Assembly (NCBI GenBank): GCA_965261345.1 | Contig: OZ253449.1 | Location: 1,251,317-1,315,316, forward strand | Direction: 5' to 3' | From: Chloroflexota bacterium | Lineage (GTDB): Bacteria > Chloroflexota > UBA11872 > VXNJ01 | Length of the DNA: 64,000 nucleotides | Part shown: in pieces, positions 15,966-27,713 of the stretch | How positions within the stretch are numbered: the stretch's first letter is position 1 | How the letters are laid out: each line of letters opens with the position of its first letter | The notes under the pieces: model-generated | Told to the model about the DNA's origin: nothing | Databases searched by the model: none | The model's input: the letters and a program-made list of their open reading frames with translations, nothing else | Program-made: the position numbers and the translations under genes

Positions 15966-16586
15966 TTAACCGGCCTCGACCGCGGCGCCGGCATAGGCGT
16001 CTATGAATTCGCCTAAGATTTCCCCGTCAACCTGGTTTAAGGCCAGCAGGGTGCCGTATGCGCTAACCGAAATGTGCGATCCGCTGGCAGCCCGGTAGGG
16101 CGCCAGGATCACTGGGCGATCGGGGAACAAATCGACGACCTCGGCAAGTTCGTCAACCATCCCGGCGCAGAGGCCGGCCGCCGGTGGACAGCTGTAACCG
16201 ATGACCACGTAGCCTTCGGCCAGGGCTGCCACCTGATCGAGGTTGCTGATCTCGCGGTCGTAGATTCCCGGCTCCGGGGCGGTCGCCGAACGCGCCCCCG
16301 AGGTGGGTGGGATCGTCAGGTAGGGATCATGCATCACGTCGGGCCCCACCACTACCGTCGGGGCGACGTCGACGCTGTTGCCGGGTGGGCCCTCGAGTAA
16401 TCCGTTTATGGCCATAAATTCAAATGGCAGCAGGACCACCATCAGCACCATCAGGATGACGAAGCGCTTCTGTCGAAAGGGGTTAAAACCCGCCCGCGGC
16501 GGCGGAGCGGCGCTGGCCGGAGCGCCCGCTGGCTCTACCGGCAGGCGAGATTGAGTTTTTCCGCGGCGGCGGCGGCGGGTGGCCAT
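15966..16586 (-). CDS. DUF3105-like membrane-anchored protein
   Basis: The track ORF (to 16874) is over-extended. A plausible start is ATG 16586 ('MATRRRRRGK...'), giving an Arg-rich N-terminus, one TM helix, then 'PPTSGARS...YVVIGYSCP...PVILAPY'. Family call by eye. Confidence 0.5.
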   Translation of the reverse strand: MATRRRRRGKTQSRLPVEPAGAPASAAPPPRAGFNPFRQKRFVILMVLMVVLLPFEFMAINGLLEGPPGNSVDVAPTVVVGPDVMHDPYLTIPPTSGARSATAPEPGIYDREISNLDQVAALAEGYVVIGYSCPPAAGLCAGMVDELAEVVDLFPDRPVILAPYRAASGSHISVSAYGTLLALNQVDGEILGEFIDAYAGAAVEAG

Positions 16587-16804
16587 GGTGTCCTTACTAG
16601 GTCTTGGGCTATCTGCTTGCTTGCTGCAATTTTCTTTATCCGGGACCGGACCGGCGGGATCGGGGCGGTGTCCCGGCAACTTTCTATAATTGCCCGAAGT
16701 GGTCGGATGACCCGACCGCCCGCGCCTGAGACTATGGCGGGGTGAAAGCTTGACGGGCAGCGTCCGCGTTGACCCACAATCTATTTTGTTTTTGAGGTTC
16801 TGGT

Positions 16805-17071
16805 TTGCCGTATCTAGGCACCAAGCAGGAAGCCATCCAAACCCTGCAAAACCATGAGCTGGACACCGGATCAACCGAGGTTCAGATCGGCGTATTGACG
16901 ACGCGCATTGTGCACCTTACCGATCATCTTCGGACGCACAAGCACGACCATCACTCGCGTCGTGGTTTGCTCAAGCTGGTTGGCAAGCGCGGCTCGCTGC
17001 TCAGGTATCTGCGGACCAAGAATTCTCAGCGTTACACGGAGGTGATAAGAACTTTGGAATTGCGCGGCTAA
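16805..17071 (+). CDS. rpsO: 30S ribosomal protein S15
   Basis: 88 aa with a TTG start. '[48 protein letters not shown]' is canonical S15. Confidence 0.95.
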
Positions 17072-17193
17072 GGCCGCGTTGCAGGGCTGCGGTCTATCTA
17101 TTTGTATGGAACATGTAAGACCGCCGTACCCTGTCCCCCATTCGGCCCGGCCCGTCAATGTGCCTAAAAAAGGACACGACGGAATCCGGCCAA

Positions 17194-17245
17194 CGCTTTT
17201 TCTTTAAAAAGCGGCAGAGGGTTGACCAGTTAAAAAATGTCAACC
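17194..17245 (+). promoter_or_regulatory. Two adjacent hairpins in the AT-rich rpsO-pnp leader (candidate pnp autoregulatory / processing structure)
   Basis: Hairpin 1 is CGCTTTTT-cttt-AAAAAGCG (17194-17213). Hairpin 2 is GGTTGAC-N12-GTCAACC (17220-17245). Both lie inside the 353-bp non-coding gap upstream of pnp. Confidence 0.35.
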
Positions 17246-17424
17246 AATCCTTGGGCTTGGCCAGATAGTCATTCAATCGGAAAAGAAAGCAAACCGGCCA
17301 AAGCAGCCCGATTCGTGCTCTTCAAGGCAAAGAAAGCAACAAAAAAAGTTCTGCCCCCGAGCATCGACCGATTTCGGCCGCTTATTGAATTTTTTAAACT
17401 CCATTCATCTTTGAGAAGAGATCT

Positions 17425-20133
17425 TTGAACACCAATATTGGGTTGCCGCTGGGCGAAAACCAGCTGCAACTGGAAACCGGTGATTTGGCGCTGCAGGCTG
17501 ATGGCGCCATCCTGGTTTCGTACGGAGACGTACGCCTTCTTTGCACGGCTTGTATGAAAGACAGCCCGCGCGAAGGACTCGACTTTTTCCCGCTCACCTG
17601 CGACTTTGAGGAAAAATCCTATTCGGTCGGTCACATCCCGGGTTCGGTATTGCGCCGCGAGGGACGTCCTCCCGACAGCGCCACACTGACCGCGCGACTT
17701 ACCGACCGCCCGCTGCGCCCGCTTTTTCCCAAAGGCATGCGCAACGACGTCCAGGTTATTAGCACCCTGCTGGCCTCGGACAAGGACATCGAAGCCGACG
17801 TGCTCGGCATCGTCGGCTGCAGTGCCGCCCTGCATATCTCGCGGATCCCCTTCAACGGGCCGATCGGCGCAGTGCGGATCGGCATGGACGGCGATGATTT
17901 TGTGATCAACCCCACCCGTTCCTTCCTGGCCGCCAATCCGGCTCTGGACATGGTGGTGGCCTCCACCGCCAAGGGTGTGGTCATGATCGAAGCCGGCGCC
18001 TCGCAGATTTCTGAAGCGGTCGTCGAACAGGCGATTGAGTTCGGTCACGAGCAAAACCTGAAGCTAATCGAGCTGCAGGAAGAACTTCGCGATCGTTGCG
18101 GCGTGGAAAAATCCGAGCCGATCATCGTTGGCGTTTCCGACGACTTGATCGACGCGGTCGAGTCGCAGGTCGGTTCCGAACTGGCCGCGGCGGTCCAGAT
18201 CACCGAGGGGCCCGACCGCTCCGAGGCGATCGCGACGGCCATGGCCAATGCCCAGGCGGCGCAGGCCGATTCCGGGCACGAGGCCGGCGACGTCAAGCAG
18301 GCGTTTGACCAGGCGCTAAAGGCCGCCACCCGGGCGGCGATCCTGGACCAGCAGTTGCGTCCCGATGGACGTTCGCCCCAGCAGTTGCGCGAGCTTTCGG
18401 CCAAGGTCGGAATTCTCCCGCGCGTACACGGATCAGGGCTGTTCCAGCGCGGTATGACTCAGTGCCTAAATGTCGTCACGCTGGGTAATGCCCGCTCGGT
18501 GCAGCGCATCGGATTGGACAACCTCGACTGGGAGGAATCCAAGCGCTACATGCACCACTACTACATGCCTCCGTACGCCTCGGGCGAGGCCTACCCGCTG
18601 CGTGGGCAGCGGCGGCGCGAAATTGGGCACGGCATCCTGGCCGAACGCGCAATTGCGCCGGTGTTGCCGAGCGAAGCGGAATTTCCCTACGTGATCCGCA
18701 CCGTTTCCGAGATTCTCTCCTCCAACGGTTCGACCTCGATGGCTGCCACCAGCAGCTCTTCGCTGGCGCTGATGGACGCCGGGGTGCCGCTCAAGGCTCC
18801 GGTGACCGGAATCTCGATCGGGTTGATCTCGGATGGCGAAGGCCGCTATGAGATCCTCTCTGACATCCAAGGTGCCGAGGACCACTTTGGCGACATGGAC
18901 TTCAAGGTTGCTGGCTCCGCCAACGGGGTAACCGCAATCCAGCTGGACATCAAACTGGATCACATCCCGCTGTCGATCGTCGGACCGGTCCTCGAGCAGG
19001 CGCGCGAGTGTCGCCAGGAAATCCTGGCAGTAATGAACGAGGCGCTGTCGACGCCGCGTGGTGACGTTAACGCCTGGGCTCCCAAGATCGTCATCCACAA
19101 GATCGACCCGTCCAAGATCGGTGAGGTCATCGGGCCCGGTGGCAAGGTGATTCGCAAGCTTGAAGAACTGACCGGGGCCTCAATCGACATCGCCGAGGAC
19201 GGCACCCTGACGGTGGCCGCGCCGCAGAAGGAGAAGGCCGCCCAGACGGTGGCCATGATCCGCGACATCATCGGCGACATCGAGATCGGCCGGACCGTGA
19301 AGGGCTCAGTCGAGCGCATCCTGCCGTTTGGTGCTTTCATTGAATTTGCGCCTGGCAAGCAGGGCATGATCCATGTTTCCGAGCTGGCCGACTACCGGGT
19401 CGAACAGGTCGAGGACGAGGTTTCAGTGGGCGATATCGTCGAGGCCAAGGTAATCGAGGTCGATGACCTTGGTCGCATTAACCTCTCGCGCCGCGCGGTA
19501 ATCCAGGGCGATGCCTACGAGGGTTACAAGCCGCGCCGCTCCGGCGGCGGACGACGTGATCGTGAAGGCGGCGACCGTGGTGGATTCCGCGGTGGCGGAC
19601 GACGCGATCGTGAAGGCGGCGACCGTGGTGGATTCCGCGGTGGCGGCGACCGTGGTGGATTCCGCGGTGGCGGCGACCGTGGTGGATTCCGCGGTGGCGG
19701 ACGACGCGACCGTGATGGCGACAGTGGTGGATTCCGCGGTGGCGGACGACGCGACCGTGATGGCGACAGTGGTGGATTCCGCGGTGGCGGACGACGCGAC
19801 CGTGATGGCGACAGTGGTGGATTCCGCGGTGGCGGACGACGCGACCGTGATGGCGACAGCGGCGGCGACCGTGGTGGATTCCGCGGTGGCGGACGACGCG
19901 ACCGTGATGGCGACAGTGGCGGCGACCGTGGTGGATTCCGTGGTGGCGGCGACCGTGGTGGATTCCGCGGTGGCGGACGACGCGACCGTGATGGCGACAG
20001 TGGTGGATTCCGCGGTGGCGGACGACGCGACCGTGATGGCGGCGACCGTGGCAAGGATCGCAATGATCACTCCGGATCGCCCGAGCGCAAGCCTGATCGC
20101 GACCGGCAGCCCGACTGGGAGTTTATGGATTGA
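17425..20133 (+). CDS. pnp: Polynucleotide phosphorylase with long C-terminal Arg/Gly/Asp repeat tail
   Basis: 902 aa with two RNase PH domains, KH ('IGEVIGPGGKVIRKL') and S1 ('GSVERILPFGAFIEF'). About 190 aa of GGRRDRDGDSGGFRG-type repeats follow. TTG start. Confidence 0.95.
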   Translation: MNTNIGLPLGENQLQLETGDLALQADGAILVSYGDVRLLCTACMKDSPREGLDFFPLTCDFEEKSYSVGHIPGSVLRREGRPPDSATLTARLTDRPLRPLFPKGMRNDVQVISTLLASDKDIEADVLGIVGCSAALHISRIPFNGPIGAVRIGMDGDDFVINPTRSFLAANPALDMVVASTAKGVVMIEAGASQISEAVVEQAIEFGHEQNLKLIELQEELRDRCGVEKSEPIIVGVSDDLIDAVESQVGSELAAAVQITEGPDRSEAIATAMANAQAAQADSGHEAGDVKQAFDQALKAATRAAILDQQLRPDGRSPQQLRELSAKVGILPRVHGSGLFQRGMTQCLNVVTLGNARSVQRIGLDNLDWEESKRYMHHYYMPPYASGEAYPLRGQRRREIGHGILAERAIAPVLPSEAEFPYVIRTVSEILSSNGSTSMAATSSSSLALMDAGVPLKAPVTGISIGLISDGEGRYEILSDIQGAEDHFGDMDFKVAGSANGVTAIQLDIKLDHIPLSIVGPVLEQARECRQEILAVMNEALSTPRGDVNAWAPKIVIHKIDPSKIGEVIGPGGKVIRKLEELTGASIDIAEDGTLTVAAPQKEKAAQTVAMIRDIIGDIEIGRTVKGSVERILPFGAFIEFAPGKQGMIHVSELADYRVEQVEDEVSVGDIVEAKVIEVDDLGRINLSRRAVIQGDAYEGYKPRRSGGGRRDREGGDRGGFRGGGRRDREGGDRGGFRGGGDRGGFRGGGDRGGFRGGGRRDRDGDSGGFRGGGRRDRDGDSGGFRGGGRRDRDGDSGGFRGGGRRDRDGDSGGDRGGFRGGGRRDRDGDSGGDRGGFRGGGDRGGFRGGGRRDRDGDSGGFRGGGRRDRDGGDRGKDRNDHSGSPERKPDRDRQPDWEFMD
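19545..20050 (+). repeat. Coding tandem repeat (RGG/RDRDGD units) inside pnp
   Basis: Four near-identical 45-nt units lie at 19681-19860 (three identical; the fourth differs at its last base). They are flanked by shorter variants of the same unit. Confidence 0.9.
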
Positions 20134-20909
20134 TCAAAGTTGCGGTATCCGGGGCCGCCGGGCGCATGGGCCAGCAAGTGGCCGCAGCGACTCTGGAAGC
20201 TCCAGATACCGCACTGGTCGGTCTCTATGACTTGGCTCCGATCCCGGCCCAACTGGCGCCAGGGATCGGGGCCCCGGCGCGCGGCTCCGACCTTGACGGG
20301 GTTTTAAAAAACTCCGGAGCACAGGTGTTGGTGGACTTTACCAACGCCGCCGCCGGATCAGATCACCTGCACCGGGCAATTGAACTGGGGGTCAGTCCGG
20401 TGGTGGGCACTACCGGGTTCGACCCAGAAACCATCGACCGGTTGGCCAACGCGGCCGACCAGACCGGAATCGGGGCCTTTCTGGCTCCGAACTTCGCCCT
20501 CGGGGCAGTCCTGCAAATGCAGATGTGCGAATTGGCGGCGCGCCATTTCAACACCGTCGAAATCATCGAACTCCATCACGATCAAAAGATCGACGCCCCT
20601 TCAGGGACCGCAATGGCCACGGCGGCCAAGATAGCTGCAGCGGCCGGTGGAGCCCGCGATGTTAGGACGGAAAAATTTGCCCTGGAAGGTGCCCGCGGCG
20701 GCAATTTCGAGGGCGTGAAGGTGCACTCGGTGCGCCTGCCCGGACTGGTCGCCCACCAGGAAGTTATCTTCGGCGGGCTGGGGCAGACCCTTACCCTGCG
20801 TCACGATTCAATCAGTCGTGAATCGTTCATGCCCGGCGTACTGTTGGCGGTCCGGCGGGTCAGAGGGCTTTCTGGCCTGGTTGTGGGGCTGGAGCACCTG
20901 CTTAACTAG
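20130..20909 (+). CDS. dapB: 4-hydroxy-tetrahydrodipicolinate reductase
   Basis: 259 aa. It has 'IKVAVSGAAGRMGQ' (NAD(P) fold) and 'ELHHDQKIDAPSGTA'. The TTG start overlaps the pnp stop. Confidence 0.9.
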   Translation: MIKVAVSGAAGRMGQQVAAATLEAPDTALVGLYDLAPIPAQLAPGIGAPARGSDLDGVLKNSGAQVLVDFTNAAAGSDHLHRAIELGVSPVVGTTGFDPETIDRLANAADQTGIGAFLAPNFALGAVLQMQMCELAARHFNTVEIIELHHDQKIDAPSGTAMATAAKIAAAAGGARDVRTEKFALEGARGGNFEGVKVHSVRLPGLVAHQEVIFGGLGQTLTLRHDSISRESFMPGVLLAVRRVRGLSGLVVGLEHLLN

Positions 20910-21023
20910 CGGGCGCTTAAATGTTTTTCAACCACTGGTCTTACGTGCTATTGTTTGTCGGCGATCCGCGCCGTGGAGCGACGGAATTGCAGAACTCCAA
21001 TCCATAGGTAGAAGTACAAGGCG

Positions 21024-22094
21024 ATGCAGCCAATTTCGGTAGCCGTGGTCGGGGCCACCGGCGCTGTCGGAACGGAACTGCTCTCCATCCTGGCCCAGCG
21101 CCAGTTCCCGATCGGCGAACTTTCGCTGCTGGCCAGCCCGCGCTCGGCCGGCAAGCAGATTGATTTTGCCGGGCGCCCGCTGACCGTGCGGCCGCTGACT
21201 GACGATTCATTCGCGGGAATCGATTTAGTCTTTTCGGCCGCCGGATCCTCAGTCGCGCGGCAATTTGCACCGCATGCGGTCGCCGCCGGCGCCACCGTGA
21301 TCGACAAGAGTTCGGCCTGGCGCTACGAGGACGATATTCCGCTGGTGGTCCCGGAGGTAAACGGTGACGACCTGGCTTCCCACCCAGGAATCATCGCCTG
21401 TCCCAACTGTTCGACGATCCAGATGGTGGTGGCGCTGGCCCCGATCGATCGGATTTTTCCGATTGAGCGGGTGGTGGTATCAACCTACCAATCGGTAACC
21501 GGGGCGGGCGCGGCCGCGGCCGACGAGCTGTCGCGGCAGGTCCGCTCGATCGCCGCTGGGCAGTTGCCCGAAACGCGAATTCTGCCGGCGCAGATCGCCC
21601 TCAACGTGATCCCCGAAGTCGAGACCTTCCGCGCCCAGGACGGCTACACCGGCGAGGAGTGGAAGATGGCCGCCGAAACCCGCAAGATCATGAACCGCAG
21701 CGACCTTCGGATCTCGGCCACCTGCGTCCGGGTCGGGGTCGAGCGGGCCCATTCGGAGTCGGTCAACGTGGAATTTGAGGGGCCGATCGACGTCGACGAA
21801 ATCCGCGAGCTGTTGGCCAACTCGGCCGGCATTCAAGTGGTCGATGCCCCGCTGGGCGACCAGCCGCGCTATCCCACCGCGCTCGATGCGGCCGGCAATG
21901 ACTGGGTTTGGGTCGGGCGCATCCGCCGCGACGTCTCGATCGAACACGGGATCTGCCTCTGGGTGGTATCTGACAACCTGCGCAAAGGGGCGGCCACCAA
22001 CTCGGTGCAGATCGCCGAACTGCTGCTGGAGCGCGGCTGGCTCAAGGGACGGGCTGCAGCCCGTCCCGGGATCTTGAACTTAGAATCGGCCTAA
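21024..22094 (+). CDS. asd: Aspartate-semialdehyde dehydrogenase
   Basis: 356 aa. It has 'VAVVGATGAVG', the active-site region 'IACPNCSTIQM', and 'VRVGVERAHSESV'. Confidence 0.95.
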   Translation: MQPISVAVVGATGAVGTELLSILAQRQFPIGELSLLASPRSAGKQIDFAGRPLTVRPLTDDSFAGIDLVFSAAGSSVARQFAPHAVAAGATVIDKSSAWRYEDDIPLVVPEVNGDDLASHPGIIACPNCSTIQMVVALAPIDRIFPIERVVVSTYQSVTGAGAAAADELSRQVRSIAAGQLPETRILPAQIALNVIPEVETFRAQDGYTGEEWKMAAETRKIMNRSDLRISATCVRVGVERAHSESVNVEFEGPIDVDEIRELLANSAGIQVVDAPLGDQPRYPTALDAAGNDWVWVGRIRRDVSIEHGICLWVVSDNLRKGAATNSVQIAELLLERGWLKGRAAARPGILNLESA

Positions 22095-22110
22095 AAATCG
22101 ACGATTTACG

Positions 22111-23046
22111 TTGGGTCTGGGGGAGTTGGAAGTGAAGTTGGAATTCGGGCGCCTGATTACTGCCATGATTACGCCGTTTGATGATTCGGGGCGAGTCGAC
22201 ATCGATACTTTCGCGGCGCTGGCCGACGGTTTGATCGAGGCCGGGAACGACGCCCTGCTGGTCACCGGCACCACCGGTGAATCGCCGGTGCTTACCGAGG
22301 CCGAGCGGGCCGATCTCTACCGCGAGGCGGTCGGAGCGGCCAAGGGCCGGGCCAAGGTGATTGCCGGAACCGGCGGTTACAACACTCAAGAGAGCATCGC
22401 GCTGTCGCAGATGGCGGCCGAATGCGGCGTGGACGGGCTGCTGCAGGTTGCCCCCTACTACAACAAGCCGCCGCAGGAAGGCCTCTACCAGCACTTTCGG
22501 GCAATCGCCGGGTGCACACCCCTGCCCAACATGATCTACAACGTGCCCTCGCGCACCGTGACCAACATCTCCCCCACCACGGTCGCGCGCTGTTCGCGGA
22601 TCGAGAACATCTTTTCGGTCAAGGAAGCCAGCGGCGACCTGGACCAGATCTCTGAGATAATCCGCACCGCCGAGCCCGGATTCCTTGTCTATTCGGGCAA
22701 CGACGGAGATACCCTGCCGATGATGGCGCTCGGCGCGGTCGGGGTGGTCTCGGTTGCCTCGCACCTGGTATCCGGGCAGATAAAGGCGATGATGGAAGCG
22801 GTGGTGGCCGGCGACCTGCCCGCGGCCGCGGCCCTGCACCTGGAGATGCTGCCGCTCGTTCGGGCGCTCTTCCCTCCCGGCTGGAGCAGTCCGATCGCGC
22901 TAAAATCGGCGCTCAATTCGGTCGGCTTCGGGGTTGGCGTCCCGCGCCTGCCGCTGGTCGAGCACGATGTCTCCCTGGCCGCCGAGCTGGCCTTAACCAC
23001 CCGCAGCCAGCGACTGGACCAGTACCTGTTCGCACGGGTCGGCTGA
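22111..23046 (+). CDS. dapA: 4-hydroxy-tetrahydrodipicolinate synthase
   Basis: It has 'ITAMITPF', 'LLVTGTTGESPVLT', 'PYYNKP' and 'KEASGD'. The exact start is uncertain (TTG 22111 versus nearby GTG/TTG codons). Confidence 0.9.
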   Translation: MGLGELEVKLEFGRLITAMITPFDDSGRVDIDTFAALADGLIEAGNDALLVTGTTGESPVLTEAERADLYREAVGAAKGRAKVIAGTGGYNTQESIALSQMAAECGVDGLLQVAPYYNKPPQEGLYQHFRAIAGCTPLPNMIYNVPSRTVTNISPTTVARCSRIENIFSVKEASGDLDQISEIIRTAEPGFLVYSGNDGDTLPMMALGAVGVVSVASHLVSGQIKAMMEAVVAGDLPAAAALHLEMLPLVRALFPPGWSSPIALKSALNSVGFGVGVPRLPLVEHDVSLAAELALTTRSQRLDQYLFARVG

Positions 23047-23047
23047 T

Positions 23048-23680
23048 CTGCCGGGACCCGAAGTCGGCCGGTCGATTGATGAGCTCGCCGACGCAATAAG
23101 GGCCTGCACCGATTGCGGCCTCTGCGCCGGTCGCCGGCAGGCGGTGCCGGGCGAGGGCAATCCAGATGCGCAGATCATGTTCATCGGCGAAGGCCCGGGG
23201 GCCCGCGAGGACGAGTCGGGTCGACCATTCGTCGGACCGTCCGGCCGGTTTCTGGGTGAGATGCTCACCAGCATCGGGCTTGACCGCTCTGACGTATTTA
23301 TCACCAACGTGGTCAAGTGCCGCCCGCCGGGCAACCGCGATCCGCTGCCGGAGGAAATTAGCGCCTGCTCGCACTGGCTCAAGGAGCAGATTAAGGTCAT
23401 CGCCCCAAAGGTTGTAATCTTGCTGGGCCGGCATGCCTTGCAACGTTTTTTGCCCGGGCGACGGATTTCTGCCGAACACGGCAGCATCCACCCATTCGGA
23501 TCGATCAGCGCGATGCCGATGTATCACCCGGCGGCGGCCTTGCACAACCCGCGGTTGCGCCAGGACTGCCTTGCCGATTTTCAGAGGTTGGCCAGTTTTC
23601 TGGCCGCGCCGCCGCCCGCCCCGACACCAGGCCCAGTCGAGCCTGACCCCAGCCCGCCCGTACAGAGATCGCTTTTCTAA
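23048..23680 (+). CDS. Uracil-DNA glycosylase, family 4 (4Fe-4S type); start codon uncertain
   Basis: It has 'GEGNPDAQIMFIGEGPGAREDESGRPFVGPSG' and 'ITNVVKCRPPGNR'. The track start (GTG 23144) would delete the N-terminal 'ACTDCGLC' Fe-S cysteines, which are encoded in frame upstream. I tentatively use CTG 23048. The conservative alternative is 23144. Confidence 0.7.
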   Translation: MPGPEVGRSIDELADAIRACTDCGLCAGRRQAVPGEGNPDAQIMFIGEGPGAREDESGRPFVGPSGRFLGEMLTSIGLDRSDVFITNVVKCRPPGNRDPLPEEISACSHWLKEQIKVIAPKVVILLGRHALQRFLPGRRISAEHGSIHPFGSISAMPMYHPAAALHNPRLRQDCLADFQRLASFLAAPPPAPTPGPVEPDPSPPVQRSLF

Positions 23681-23765
23681 AACACCGCGAGCTAAAGCGG
23701 CCGCCGCCCCGACTCGGCAGCCGACCCAACCCACTTTTGATTCATCTAGTTACAAGGTCTGTAAT

Positions 23766-25433
23766 TTGAAATCCAATCCGAAATCACTCCGCGCCACTTT
23801 TCTAGGGGGCCTGGGCGATGTCGGTCGCAACTGTCTGCTGCTCGAATGCGGCAACGACGCCATCCTGGTCGATTGCGGCGTACTATTTCCCGATGATCGG
23901 GTCAGCGGGGTCGATGTCATCCTGCCCGACTTTTCGCTGCTGGAGCCATACGCTGATAAGCTGCGCGGGGTCATCTTCACCCACGGCCACGAGGACCACA
24001 TCGGGGCCGCCCCGTACCTGTTGGCTAAATACGACCTGCCGCTTTATGGCTCGCCGTTGACGCTCTCCTTCCTGCGCGAGCGACTCGAGCAGAAAGGCCT
24101 GGCAAGCAAGGCCGACCTGCGGCGGCTGCGCGAGCGCCGGACCACCCAGCTGGGCTGCTTTGACATCACCCCGTTCCATGTCTGCCATTCAATTCCCGAC
24201 GCGATGGGTTTTGCGATCGGCACCCCGGTCGGCACCCTTATCCACACCGGCGATTACATGATCGACAACCAGCCGATCGACGGCCAACCGACCGACCTGC
24301 AGATGCTCGGGGCGCTGGGGGCAGAGGGCGTGCTGGCCCTGTTTGCCGATTCAACCAACGCCGACACGCCGGGGCACACTCCCTCGCAGCAGACGGTATA
24401 CGACGGTCTCGCCCAAGTGTTTGCGCAGGCCGACTATGGGCGGGTCATCGTGGCCAGCTTTTCCTCGAACCTGACCCGGGTCCAGCAGATCGCTGACCTG
24501 GCCGGGAACCACGGGCGCCGGGTCTGCGTGCTGGGACGATCGTTGGAGCGCAATCTGCCACTGGCCTCGGAGCTGGCCCTGCTCGACATCGAGCCGGGCG
24601 ACCTGATCCCGACAAAGCTGATCGACCAGATCCCGCACGAAGAGCTGGCGATCGTTTGCACCGGCAGCCAGGGGGAGCCCGGTTCGGCGCTCTCGCGCCT
24701 GGCCGATGGTCGCCACCCGCTGTTGGAAATAGATGAGGGCGACACGGTGGTGATTTCGGCCTCGGCAATCCCCGGCAACGAGCGTACGGTGCAGCGGATG
24801 ATCGGGAAGCTCTTCCGCCGCGGCGCCAACGTGGTATTTGGAAAACTCGGTCACGTGCACGTGAGCGGACACCCGGCCCGTGAGGACACCCGCGCCCTGC
24901 TGTCGGTTGTGCGCCCGCAATTTTTCGTGCCGGTCCATGGCAGTCACCACCATCTGGCCTTGCAGGCCCAGGTGGCGATTGAATCGGGAATGTCGCGGGA
25001 GGCGGTGCTGGTCGCCGCCGATGGCGATGTGGTCGATATCTCAGCTGATTCGATCGAATTGGTAGAGCATCGATCCTGCCCCCACATCTATGTGAATCGT
25101 GGCGCCGCTCCGGGCGTGGAGCTAAGCGAACCCTGCCTGCGGCAGCGGCAGCAGCTGGCCAACGCCGGGGTCGTGGCGGTACACGCCCAGATCGACCTGA
25201 GCTGCGGCCAGCTGGTCGGTCGCCCGCAGCTGGTCTCGCACGGGCTAATGGGCGGGGCCGAGCGGAAGATGTCCAAGCTTGCCGGCCGGCTCGGCCAGCT
25301 GCTGTCGGGCGATCGCCGGGAATTGCCCAACCTTGATGCGGCGAATGCAAAAGTTAAGATGGTTGTAGGGAGGCAAATAAAAGCCGAAACAGGCTTGCGG
25401 CCAACGATCCTGGCGATCGTTACCGCGGCTTGA
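23766..25433 (+). CDS. rnj: Ribonuclease J
   Basis: Metallo-beta-lactamase/beta-CASP pattern: 'GGLGDVGRNCLLLECGNDAILVDCG', 'FTHGHEDHIGA', 'HVSGHPARED'. The track ORF from 23433 is over-extended. TTG 23766 gives about 555 aa, the usual RNase J size. Confidence 0.9.
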   Translation: MKSNPKSLRATFLGGLGDVGRNCLLLECGNDAILVDCGVLFPDDRVSGVDVILPDFSLLEPYADKLRGVIFTHGHEDHIGAAPYLLAKYDLPLYGSPLTLSFLRERLEQKGLASKADLRRLRERRTTQLGCFDITPFHVCHSIPDAMGFAIGTPVGTLIHTGDYMIDNQPIDGQPTDLQMLGALGAEGVLALFADSTNADTPGHTPSQQTVYDGLAQVFAQADYGRVIVASFSSNLTRVQQIADLAGNHGRRVCVLGRSLERNLPLASELALLDIEPGDLIPTKLIDQIPHEELAIVCTGSQGEPGSALSRLADGRHPLLEIDEGDTVVISASAIPGNERTVQRMIGKLFRRGANVVFGKLGHVHVSGHPAREDTRALLSVVRPQFFVPVHGSHHHLALQAQVAIESGMSREAVLVAADGDVVDISADSIELVEHRSCPHIYVNRGAAPGVELSEPCLRQRQQLANAGVVAVHAQIDLSCGQLVGRPQLVSHGLMGGAERKMSKLAGRLGQLLSGDRRELPNLDAANAKVKMVVGRQIKAETGLRPTILAIVTAA

Positions 25434-25469
25434 TGCGGCCCACCGGAACGCGTTAACCGGAGCTTTCCC

Positions 25470-27713
25470 TTGCCCACCGCCAAATCGACGGCCCGCACTT
25501 CCAAGCGGGCCCCCCAGGCCGATCCGCAAACCCCGGCCGGGGCTTGGTTCCTGCTGGCGGCCCTGTCGTCGGCCCTTCTGGCCGGCGCCGGCGTGATCGT
25601 GCCGCTGCTGCCCGATCATCCGCTGGCCCAATTCCCGGCCCAGATCTTCTATCTGGCGCTGGGCCGGGCCGGGCTCCCGGCGATGCTTATCCTGCTGGTG
25701 CTTAGCCTGGTGGCGGCGTTTGCGCTGGCCCTGCAACGCCCGATTGTCAGCCCGCTGCAGACGTCGCTGGCGCTGGCCCTGATCGTGACCCTGGCGGCAT
25801 TTGAATCGCTGCTCTCGCTGGCCGGCGGCGGCGATTTGCAGGCCGGCGGGCTGGTTGGATCGATGCTGGGTTCGGCCTTGGCGGCGGTTTTCCCGGCTGG
25901 CCTCGGAGTGGCCCTCTGCGCCCTGGCGGCGATCGGACTGGCGACCTGGGCGCTTGTTGCCTCGGATTGGGCGCAAAGCCACCTGGGTTGGGTCGGCGCC
26001 AAGGGGATTGCCGGCGGTCGAGCCACCGGCCGCCGGATTGATGCGATGGCCACCTGGCTCAACCAGCGGTTCGATCCCGACGCCGAGGACGCGGCGGCCG
26101 CGCAGCCGGAGGCGGCGAGCGCGGTTGTCGACCCAGCGGCCGATGCGGACCCGGAGCCGCCGGCGATGGCTGGGGAATTGCCCGGGCCGGGCCTGGTGAT
26201 CAAACAACCGGCGCTTGCGCAGGGTTCGGCGATGGCATCGCGTGGCATCCCGATTCCGTTGACCGGTCAATCCGGATGGGTTCTGCCGCCGCCCGACATT
26301 TTCGAAGTACCTGGCCGGCGCGAGAGGGTATCGCACTCTGAGATCACTGAGAACGCGACGATCATCGAGGAGACCCTGGCGAACTTCAAAGTCGACGTCC
26401 GGGTAGTCGAGGCGATCCCCGGACCGGTGGTGACCCAGTATTGCATCGCCCCGGCGGCCGGGGTGCGCGTGACTCACATCACCCGCCATTCCGACGATCT
26501 GGCGCTGGCCCTTGCGGCCCGCAGCATAAGAATTGAATCGCCAATTCCGGGCCGCCCGTTCGTTGGACTGGAGATCCCCAACCGCGATCCGTCGGTGGTA
26601 ACGATCCGCGAGCTGCTTGAATCGCGCGAATTCGTCGAGGACCGCACCGCGCTCAAGATCGCGCTCGGAAAAGACGTGGCCGATCACTCCCAGGTCCGCT
26701 CGCTGGCCCGGATGCCGCACCTGTTAATTGCCGGATCGACCGGATCGGGCAAGTCGGTATTCCTCAACACCGTCTTGATTTCGCTGCTCTGCCAGTACAC
26801 CCCGGATGAGCTGAAGTTGGTGCTGATCGACCCCAAGATGGTTGAATTGGTCCCCTACAATGCCGTGCCGCACCTGCTCATGCCGGTAGTTTCGACGCCG
26901 GCCGATGCGGTCCCGGTGCTGTCCTGGGTACAGCAGGAGATGTCGCGTCGCTATCGCGTGCTGCGCGATTCGGGCCGTCGCAACGTGGCCTCCTACAACG
27001 CCGATCCCAATCTCGGGCAGGATTCGAAACTGCCCTACCTGGTGGTGGTGGTTGACGAGATGGCCGACCTGATGATGACCGCGCCGGCCGAGATCGAGCT
27101 GTCGATCTGCCGCCTGGCCCAGATGGCCCGGGCGGTCGGAATCCACTTGGTAATCGCCACCCAGCGTCCCTCGGTCGACGTGATCACCGGCCTGATTAAG
27201 GCCAACTTCCCCTCGCGCGTGGCCTTCTCGGTCTCCTCGCAGGTCGACTCGCGCACCATCCTCGACCACGCCGGGGCCGAAAAACTGATGGGCCGCGGTG
27301 ACATGCTCTTCAATTCCGCCGAACACGGCAGGAGCGTGCGGGTGCAGGGTGCGTTCGCATCCGACGATGACATCACCGAACTGGTGACCTTTTGGGTAAA
27401 GCAGGGCGAGGGCGAATATGTAAGTGCCGACGAGATCGCCAGCGCCATACCCTCGTCCAGCCCGATTGATGATTCTGAGCTGTACCAGGAGGCCGTCAGC
27501 GTGGTGATGCAGTTCAATTACGCGTCGCCGGCGCTGCTGCAGCGCGAATTGAAACTGGGCGCCGGCAAGGCGACCGACTTGATCGGAAAGCTGGAAGCTG
27601 CCGGTATAGTGGGGCCACAGGAGGGTGAAAGCTCCTCGCGGGCGGTAATTGCCAAATCCAATCCGGCCGACCCGGTTGTCGTCGGATCCTCAGAGGTAGC
27701 CCCTGATGCTTGA
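25470..27713 (+). CDS. ftsK: DNA translocase FtsK/SpoIIIE
   Basis: 747 aa with N-terminal TM helices, Walker A 'GSTGSGKSV', 'VVVDEMADLM', and a gamma-domain-like C-terminus 'ASPALLQRELKLGAGKATDLIGKLE'. Confidence 0.9.
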   Translation: MPTAKSTARTSKRAPQADPQTPAGAWFLLAALSSALLAGAGVIVPLLPDHPLAQFPAQIFYLALGRAGLPAMLILLVLSLVAAFALALQRPIVSPLQTSLALALIVTLAAFESLLSLAGGGDLQAGGLVGSMLGSALAAVFPAGLGVALCALAAIGLATWALVASDWAQSHLGWVGAKGIAGGRATGRRIDAMATWLNQRFDPDAEDAAAAQPEAASAVVDPAADADPEPPAMAGELPGPGLVIKQPALAQGSAMASRGIPIPLTGQSGWVLPPPDIFEVPGRRERVSHSEITENATIIEETLANFKVDVRVVEAIPGPVVTQYCIAPAAGVRVTHITRHSDDLALALAARSIRIESPIPGRPFVGLEIPNRDPSVVTIRELLESREFVEDRTALKIALGKDVADHSQVRSLARMPHLLIAGSTGSGKSVFLNTVLISLLCQYTPDELKLVLIDPKMVELVPYNAVPHLLMPVVSTPADAVPVLSWVQQEMSRRYRVLRDSGRRNVASYNADPNLGQDSKLPYLVVVVDEMADLMMTAPAEIELSICRLAQMARAVGIHLVIATQRPSVDVITGLIKANFPSRVAFSVSSQVDSRTILDHAGAEKLMGRGDMLFNSAEHGRSVRVQGAFASDDDITELVTFWVKQGEGEYVSADEIASAIPSSSPIDDSELYQEAVSVVMQFNYASPALLQRELKLGAGKATDLIGKLEAAGIVGPQEGESSSRAVIAKSNPADPVVVGSSEVAPDA

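Follow-up and report, generated by a model that had tools for sequence, protein, structure and literature searches.

A long RGG-type repeat tail on the polynucleotide phosphorylase of a Chloroflexota lineage

In bacterial RNA-decay machines, disordered scaffolds are thought to sit on RNase E, RNase Y or helicases. Condensates formed by the disordered C-terminal domain of RNase E stimulate polynucleotide phosphorylase (PNPase), which RNase E recruits by its own 10-residue terminal peptide EKPRRGWWRR (PMC10412687). In Pseudomonas aeruginosa, the C-terminal extensions of the helicases RhlE1 and RhlE2 are reported to strengthen RNA binding and promote phase separation, and that of RhlE2 also binds RNase E (PMC11260450); type II RhlB helicases phase-separate too (PMC13462270). 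Here, we describe a pnp gene within a 64,000-nt stretch of contig OZ253449.1 from a Chloroflexota bacterium (hereafter the window, to which all positions refer unless another locus is named), whose product continues behind its S1 domain into a long tail of tandem repeats rich in arginine and glycine and ends in a conserved, non-repetitive peptide. Canonical PNPases such as those of E. coli, Caulobacter, Streptomyces and Mycobacterium (PDB 3cdi, 4aim, 1e3h and 7ld5) have the same domain set and the same rpsO-pnp pair. However, canonical and solved PNPases finish at most about 30 residues past S1, whereas the window PNPase runs 211 residues further.

The PNPase core and the repeat tail behind it

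The pnp open reading frame (ORF) lies on the forward strand at 17425-20133, with a TTG start at 17425 and a TGA stop at 20131-20133, and encodes 902 aa. Pfam domains called on the product were two copies of RNase_PH, RNase_PH_C, PNPase, KH_1 and S1, the last of which ended at residue 690. Two equivalog-level NCBIfam models matched residues 9-691 over nearly their whole length (model positions 6-682/683), NF008805 with 855.3 bits against a cut-off of 471 and TIGR03591 with 849.6 bits against a cut-off of 525. PNPases of known structure aligned from residue 9 on (E = 1e-192 to 1e-120), and for all 27 solved PNPase chains in PDB the alignment ended at query residue 702 or before. The domain order RNase PH, alpha-helical domain, RNase PH, KH and S1 was seen in the Pfam calls, the AlphaFold2 core and the PDB alignments alike. 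Judged by these domains, the host protein is an ordinary PNPase plus 211 residues beyond S1, and from the equivalog-level homology we infer that it works as a homotrimer with phosphorolytic 3'-5' exoribonuclease activity. A net charge of -33 per monomer makes the core strongly acidic. Sources that name the relatives' proteins use plain "polyribonucleotide nucleotidyltransferase".

Behind S1 stands a short linker, whose pattern GD(A/D)Y(E/T)GY(K/R)PRRS was conserved in 10/10 clade orthologues. In an AlphaFold2 monomer model built on a 32-sequence alignment, a short helix spanned residues 689-697, after which order was lost: the predicted local distance difference test score (pLDDT) was mostly 85-97 in the core and 26-39 over residues 700-902, all of which was coil by DSSP, while the repeat array reached 30-39 and had no secondary structure. 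No helix was predicted past residue 697 in this model, and no membrane-targeting amphipathic helix was found there.

Splitting the tail after each FRG resolved the array into 11 units ending in GGFRG and one partial unit. The unit lengths were, in order, 16, 16, 9, 9, 15, 15, 15, 19, 19, 9 and 15 aa, the four sizes of 9, 15, 16 and 19 aa corresponding to 27, 45, 48 and 57 nt. Three unit types recurred, GGDRGGFRG, GGRRDRDGDSGGFRG and GGRRDRDGDSGGDRGGFRG. The array contained 18 RGG and 11 GGFRG. With a tri-RGG defined as RGG(X0-4)RGG(X0-4)RGG, a regular-expression search found three non-overlapping tri-RGG and seven di-RGG matches between residues 718 and 865, i.e., the clustering of RGG motifs that defines RGG/GAR (glycine-arginine-rich) regions.

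Several statements of an initial annotation made from the letters of the window can be set against these results. It had described a repeat tail of ~190 aa, which comes to 198 residues (705-902, nt 19537-20130) out of the ~211 past S1. Its estimate of about a dozen units agrees with the 11 plus a partial one, but the units are heterogeneous, three being the short GGDRGGFRG. It had called the tail non-canonical and RGG-box-like, and indeed the tail lies outside the Pfam and NCBIfam models and beyond all PDB alignments and contains tri- and di-RGG patterns. The intrinsic disorder that it had proposed is borne out as a prediction, by the low pLDDT at residues 700-902. It had also singled out four near-identical 45-nt units at 19681-19860, for which we counted matches of 45/45, 45/45, 45/45 and 44/45. 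What it overlooked is that the protein ends in a conserved peptide outside the repeats, PDWEF(M/V)D.

The 214 residues past the S1 motif are dominated by four amino acids (G78 R54 D37 F12). The tail has a net charge of +15 and a charged fraction of 0.46, and its charges are finely intermixed (approximate kappa ~0.1). Between Y701 and F862, an aromatic residue recurs every 9-20 positions, and a 36-residue gap precedes W898 and F900; hydrophobic residues are limited to Phe and the terminal W, F and M. The array gives way to a unique C-terminal segment, and the window protein ends in ...RQPDWEFMD.

At the DNA level, Tandem Repeats Finder (TRF) reported a period of 45 with 8.1 copies and a score of 499, and the 45-nt periodicity is far beyond chance. 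A tract within the array is perfectly periodic and, by this identity, is the part homogenised most recently. Within the array, GC content climbs to 0.71, with a GC skew of up to +0.29. Three further ORFs overlap it, at 19511-20230 on the forward and at 19423-20070 and 19524-20063 on the reverse strand. We rejected them as stop-free by-products of periodic G/C-rich DNA, because only the pnp frame reaches the conserved terminal motif and the coupled start of dapB. These other-frame ORFs (179-239 aa) encode repeats rich in Ala/Thr/Val or in Pro/Arg/Ser and could mislead gene callers.

Translation, turnover and distribution of the tail

A perfectly periodic tract of 181 nt is difficult for short reads, and the real gene might therefore stop at about residue 700-710 or have a different number of copies. 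The relatives argue otherwise. L083, a locus from a different sample on a 774-kb contig, has a pnp gene of the same 2709 nt with identical unit order, although 17/2709 positions differ. Among these differences 15/17 are synonymous; nine of the 17 fall in the tail, where 8/9 are synonymous. Collapse of the repeat, or a frameshift ending the protein near residue 710, both of which the initial annotation had raised, is refuted by this independent assembly of the same length. Several orthologues with long in-frame tails lie on contigs of 0.48-2.3 Mb. Across ten orthologues of 826-926 aa, with core identity down to ~80%, the reading frame persists through repeats of differing arrangement, and R(Q/E)PDWEF(M/V)D terminates 10/10 of them despite the differing repeats upstream. 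As the same terminal motif follows rearranged repeats, the whole array must be translated. Every unit length in any genome examined is a multiple of 3. Translation to the annotated stop is further backed by the overlap between the end of pnp and the beginning of dapB, seen in four genomes (the window, L081, L083 and L084).

One relative shows how the region can be misread. At L085 (3540-4010), the orthologue P0006 was called at 724 aa owing to a +1 frameshift in a GGGTTT run within the tail. The shifted frame runs on as GFRDRGGDRGGF... to REPDWEFMD and was called as a separate 111-aa gene. Because the shifted frame leads to this motif, the tail is still encoded at L085, and the split stems either from an error in sequencing or from a recent slip on the way to a pseudogene. 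The caution that the copy number is sensitive to assembly is thus fair for the region, but the copy number in the window matches that in L083. By conservation of length, frame and terminal motif, the tail is confirmed as genuine and translated and not an assembly artefact in this window, which leaves a truncated gene or a wrong copy number extremely improbable; moreover, the tail appears to be under purifying selection. A practical consequence is that gene callers and assemblers can split or shorten this gene, L085 being an example.

The repeats turn over rapidly. Units of one genome share synonymous codons, with GGTGGATTCCGC in the window, GGCGGTTTCCGC in L081 and L084, and GGTGGCTTCCGTGGC in L082. 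Since codon choices are shared among the units within a genome and differ between genomes, this is, on the sequence evidence, concerted evolution, in which units are duplicated in tandem, deleted and converted. Strains with ~95% identical cores differ in unit order. The recent expansion or slippage proposed from the window alone accordingly finds support in unit copy and arrangement that vary among close relatives, with units homogenised per genome. The array thus shows in good resolution how a repeat within a coding region evolves in concert while conserving its bulk charge and not its sequence.

Slippage in a GC-rich, G-skewed tract could also have given rise to a neutral low-complexity expansion, i.e., a tolerated appendix without specific function. 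This would accord with the perfect 181-nt periodic tract and the unit arrangement varying among close strains, with substitutions relative to L083 that are denser in the tail (9/~645 nt) than in the core (8/~2064 nt), and with a tail length that spans 33 to 220 aa within the phylum. We nevertheless regard it as very unlikely, because all length changes seen are in frame, 8/9 tail substitutions are synonymous, and net charge, charged fraction and aromatic spacing stay constant over a 1.6-fold length range. In addition, the strictly conserved unique motif past the repeats needs read-through of the full array, and the R/G-rich tail is kept phylum-wide but is absent from most other phyla. Among tails of 135-220 aa, net charge ranged from +13 to +17, the charged fraction from 0.45 to 0.50 and the number of aromatic residues from 11 to 15. 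What selection appears to maintain is therefore the composition, the charge and the spacing of stickers, with an aromatic every 9-19 residues, together with the precise terminal peptide. Functional disordered regions typically show such conservation of bulk properties.

To place the tail phylogenetically, we surveyed the best 120 PNPase relatives, all labelled Chloroflexota, Dehalococcoidia, Ktedonobacterales or Herpetosiphonaceae, from which 115 tails were parsed. These Chloroflexota tails had a median length of 85 aa (33-220) and a median R+G fraction of 0.55; 42 reached 100 aa or more and three 190 aa or more. In a wider set of genome loci, Chloroflexota-labelled PNPases had R/G-rich tails of 35-123 aa, whereas at most Omnitrophota, Planctomycetota, Verrucomicrobiota and Firmicutes loci only 4-32 residues followed S1 and these were not R/G-rich; L031, L049, L064 and L078 were exceptions with moderately R/P-rich sequence. 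On Chloroflexota PNPases an R/G-rich tail is the norm, and the window lineage is the long extreme. In the sister group (~60% identity), tails measured just 42-66 aa; therefore, it was within this lineage that an older feature of the whole phylum grew into the array of ~200 aa. The initial annotation had allowed for a tail common and already characterised in its clade. Common it is, but in the literature outside subscription-only papers we came across no account of PNPases with R/G-rich tails.

Other clades expanded other units, e.g., GGDRGGFNRGG and GGGGYGGGGRGG, and have conserved ends of their own, such as PPPPPPPAPM(K/R)RW and GPGPIKS. Tryptophan occurred only five times among 7131 tail-body residues and within the last 10 residues in 24/114 tails. 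Long tails among Dehalococcoidia-like and other Chloroflexota PNPases (P0058-P0106) had C-termini of the form GFRREPGSPPPPPPPAPM(K/R)RW or ...RRGW. These basic, Trp-bearing ends recall the Caulobacter RNase E peptide and raise the possibility that PNPase tails could bind PNPase cores.

Homology searches with the tail alone added little. In a set of 5.8 billion proteins, 12 weak hits (37-45 bits) to unrelated small proteins were returned; the search missed the PNPases themselves, as low-complexity words saturate the candidates, and is hence uninformative. A phmmer search against 1.84 billion representatives gave four hits, a Bud13 splicing-factor homologue, a 7TM receptor and two domain-less repeat proteins, which we rejected as periodicity artefacts rather than relatives. 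A PDB search with the tail sequence gave no match. As far as sequence can tell, the tail is not homologous to any known RGG/GAR region.

The comparison among genomes shows an origin by expansion of an ancestral tail with continual homogenisation. An R/G-rich tail of ~40-60 aa, common to Chloroflexota PNPases, was the starting point; in-frame tandem duplication of units of 27-57 nt lengthened it in this lineage, and slippage or gene conversion keeps homogenising the units within each genome.

Possible functions of the tail

We tentatively favour a selected, disordered RGG-type tail that serves as an auxiliary RNA-binding region and bears a docking peptide, and put the chance of this being right at just short of half. 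In the PNPase trimer, the S1 and KH domains encircle the RNA entry pore. Three tails per trimer, with ~33 GGFRG boxes in all, would radiate from this S1/KH face and could act as multivalent RNA-capture and RNA-remodelling arms of low specificity, which would raise the local RNA concentration and feed 3' ends to the channel. The likeliest role of PDWEF(M/V)D is that of a short linear motif, which would either dock a partner protein or fold back on the enzyme. Condensate formation or degradosome scaffolding by the tail is possible by analogy with RNase E and the disordered regions of helicases and is the least supported step of this proposal.

Several points weigh against it. The terminal motif did not dock anywhere in the AlphaFold2 monomer model, where its pLDDT was 26-31. 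A search of other ORFs in the window and 86 loci for PDWEF found none, the motif occurring only at PNPase C-termini. The tail is nearly charge-balanced, with 54 R against 37 D in fine mixture, and such near-balanced, mixed charges should leave it with a weaker non-specific affinity for RNA and less self-coacervation than pure RGG domains have. RNA binding by PNPase tails of this type is argued wholly from analogy. Moreover, GC-rich genomes often carry low-complexity C-terminal expansions that are possibly near neutral.

Another function would be mainly that of a flexible spacer, in which the repeats just give reach to PDWEFMD as the functional element, like the linker and tip of the single-stranded DNA-binding protein SSB, perhaps with an auto-regulatory role through the S1/KH face or the core. 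The terminal motif is the sole strictly conserved tail sequence, other Chloroflexota clades have conserved ends of their own (e.g., PPPPPPPAPM(K/R)RW and GPGPIKS), tryptophan is concentrated in the last 10 residues (24/114 tails vs 5/7131 body residues), and the core is strongly negative. However, an R+G fraction of ~0.6, a conserved positive net charge and regularly spaced aromatics are needless for a mere spacer, the short-tailed Chloroflexota PNPases are R/G-rich yet have no recognisable motif, and the model shows no docking. We consider a tail that is mainly a spacer unlikely, though still worth entertaining.

Scaffolding carried to its full extent, in line with the role suggested in the initial annotation, would make PNPase a self-scaffolding hub of a degradosome or condensate, substituting for the disordered C-terminal domain of RNase E, with the tip recruiting RNase J or a helicase. 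RGG domains of the LAF-1, DDX4 and fibrillarin type phase-separate with RNA, and the G/R/D composition with regular aromatics is that of such phase-separating domains. A disordered multivalent tail of ~200 aa present three times per trimer, the conserved terminal motif and the location of rnj within the conserved gene cluster of pnp would fit a hub as well, and there are bacterial precedents in RhlE, type II RhlB and RNase E (PMC11260450, PMC13462270, PMC10412687). Yet the well-mixed charges (kappa ~0.1) and near neutrality speak against strong self-coacervation, and the window RNase J has no matching disordered region or motif, so that we hold a PNPase-centred hub to be rather unlikely. Its generalisation, in which PNPase rather than RNase E bears the multivalent RNA-binding scaffold throughout Chloroflexota, trimers nucleate decay assemblies or condensates, and clade-specific tips recruit partners or cross-link trimers, is a distinctly doubtful extension.

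If this held, Chloroflexota would have an independently evolved and differently organised degradosome. A selected RGG-type region borne by the PNPases of a phylum would in itself be an independent answer to the problem of organising RNA decay. It would also be a natural bacterial case of the G/R/D/aromatic composition that drives eukaryotic ribonucleoprotein granules. For the favoured RNA-binding tail with its docking peptide as for the alternatives, the locus offers a clean test system, with one enzyme, an easily deleted tail and natural lengths of 33-220 aa, and thereby a testable lead on RNA-decay organisation in a little-studied phylum.

Gene neighbourhood and comparison with known systems

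The features of the locus are collected in Table 1. Gene order over 16805-27713 is rpsO-pnp-dapB-asd-dapA-rnj-ftsK, and the order from rpsO to dapA is shared by L081 and L082.

Table 1. Features of the rpsO-pnp-dapB region, in window coordinates
Feature	Positions	Strand	Basis or remark
rpsO (ribosomal protein S15), 88 aa	16805..17071	+	ORF; PF00312 Ribosomal_S15 called at the equivalent position in L081 and L082
rpsO-pnp leader, ~350 nt	17072..17424	+	low GC, structured
PNPase core with KH and S1 (residues 1-691)	17425..19497	+	Pfam, NCBIfam, AlphaFold2, PDB
Linker after S1, VIQGDAYEGYKPRRS (residues 692-704)	19498..19536	+	kept across the clade
Tandem repeat array (residues 705-876)	19537..20052	+	unit dissection, TRF, RGG counts, pLDDT
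Perfectly periodic 45-nt tract (181 nt)	19679..19859	+	136-nt exact self-match at offset 45
Unique C-terminal segment KDRNDHSGSPERKPDRDRQPDWEFMD, 26 aa, non-repetitive	20053..20130	+	conserved end
PDWEFMD, last 7 residues, candidate docking peptide	20110-20130	+	conserved in orthologues
dapB	20130..20909	+	TTG start overlaps the pnp TGA (TTGA at 20130-20133)

The leader between rpsO and pnp had a GC content of 0.48-0.53 vs ~0.62 in its surroundings and a minimum free energy of -105.6 kcal/mol (z = -2.2 vs shuffled sequences). It was nearly identical in L081 and L084 and largely diverged in L082 except near the start codon; GAAGAGATCYTTGAAC around the TTG start was invariant in four related genomes, L082 included. 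The leader is unusually long and may be a pnp autoregulatory element. A search of the whole 64-kb window against Rfam at the gathering threshold found no family, i.e., no tRNA, riboswitch or leader.

Downstream, an overlap of 4 nt between pnp and dapB as called also occurs in L081 (5724-5727), L083 (4206-4209) and L084 (4200-4203), and DapB_N and DapB_C domains were called in dapB of these loci; the two genes are apart by 32 nt in L082 and by 3 nt in L086. The TTGA overlap suggests that dapB is translationally coupled to a PNPase read through its full tail. Two exoribonuclease genes, pnp and rnj, share the neighbourhood, that for RNase J lying four genes downstream of pnp. No genuine R/G-rich tail was found on the neighbouring genes, RNase J included. 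The RNase J ORF (23433-25433) has 666 aa from its first ATG, while its domains start only near residue 128; its R/P/C-rich first ~100 residues are probably non-coding read-through, the true start probably lying downstream near ...NLKSNPKSL. Similarly, the DUF3105 ORF upstream of rpsO (15966-16874, reverse strand) is listed with 302 aa vs 206 aa in L081, L083 and L084, and its first ~95 residues are probably non-coding, the Pfam match beginning at residue 185.

Compared with known systems, the tail shares with the extensions of the DEAD-box helicases RhlE1, RhlE2 and type II RhlB that it is basic, disordered by prediction and placed at the C-terminus of an enzyme of RNA metabolism. It differs from them in its PNPase core, the near-perfect tandem repeat, ~17% Asp and a conserved acidic-aromatic end. 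SSB offers a parallel in architecture, since an OB fold (S1 in the case described here) is followed by a variable low-complexity linker and a short conserved acidic/aromatic tip; the linker in the window, however, is highly charged and R/G-rich instead of G/Q/P-rich, and the tip sequence is unrelated. With the eukaryotic RGG/GAR regions of fibrillarin, nucleolin, LAF-1, DDX4 and Npl3, the tail has RGG/GGFRGG boxes, aromatics and Asp in common. It is bacterial and without sequence homology to them, the likeness being one of compositional convergence, and we know of no arginine methylation system in this context.

The scaffold domain of RNase E is likewise long and disordered and combines Arg-rich RNA-binding segments with short linear motifs. 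In the window, by contrast, the region sits on an exoribonuclease and not on an endonuclease, its host having no RNase E/G catalytic domain. A membrane-targeting helix is not predicted in the tail, which has a single strictly conserved terminal motif with a hypothetical partner. The C-terminal domain of Caulobacter RNase E, which has a blocky charge pattern, is also unlike the mixed tail (kappa ~0.1) of the window PNPase.

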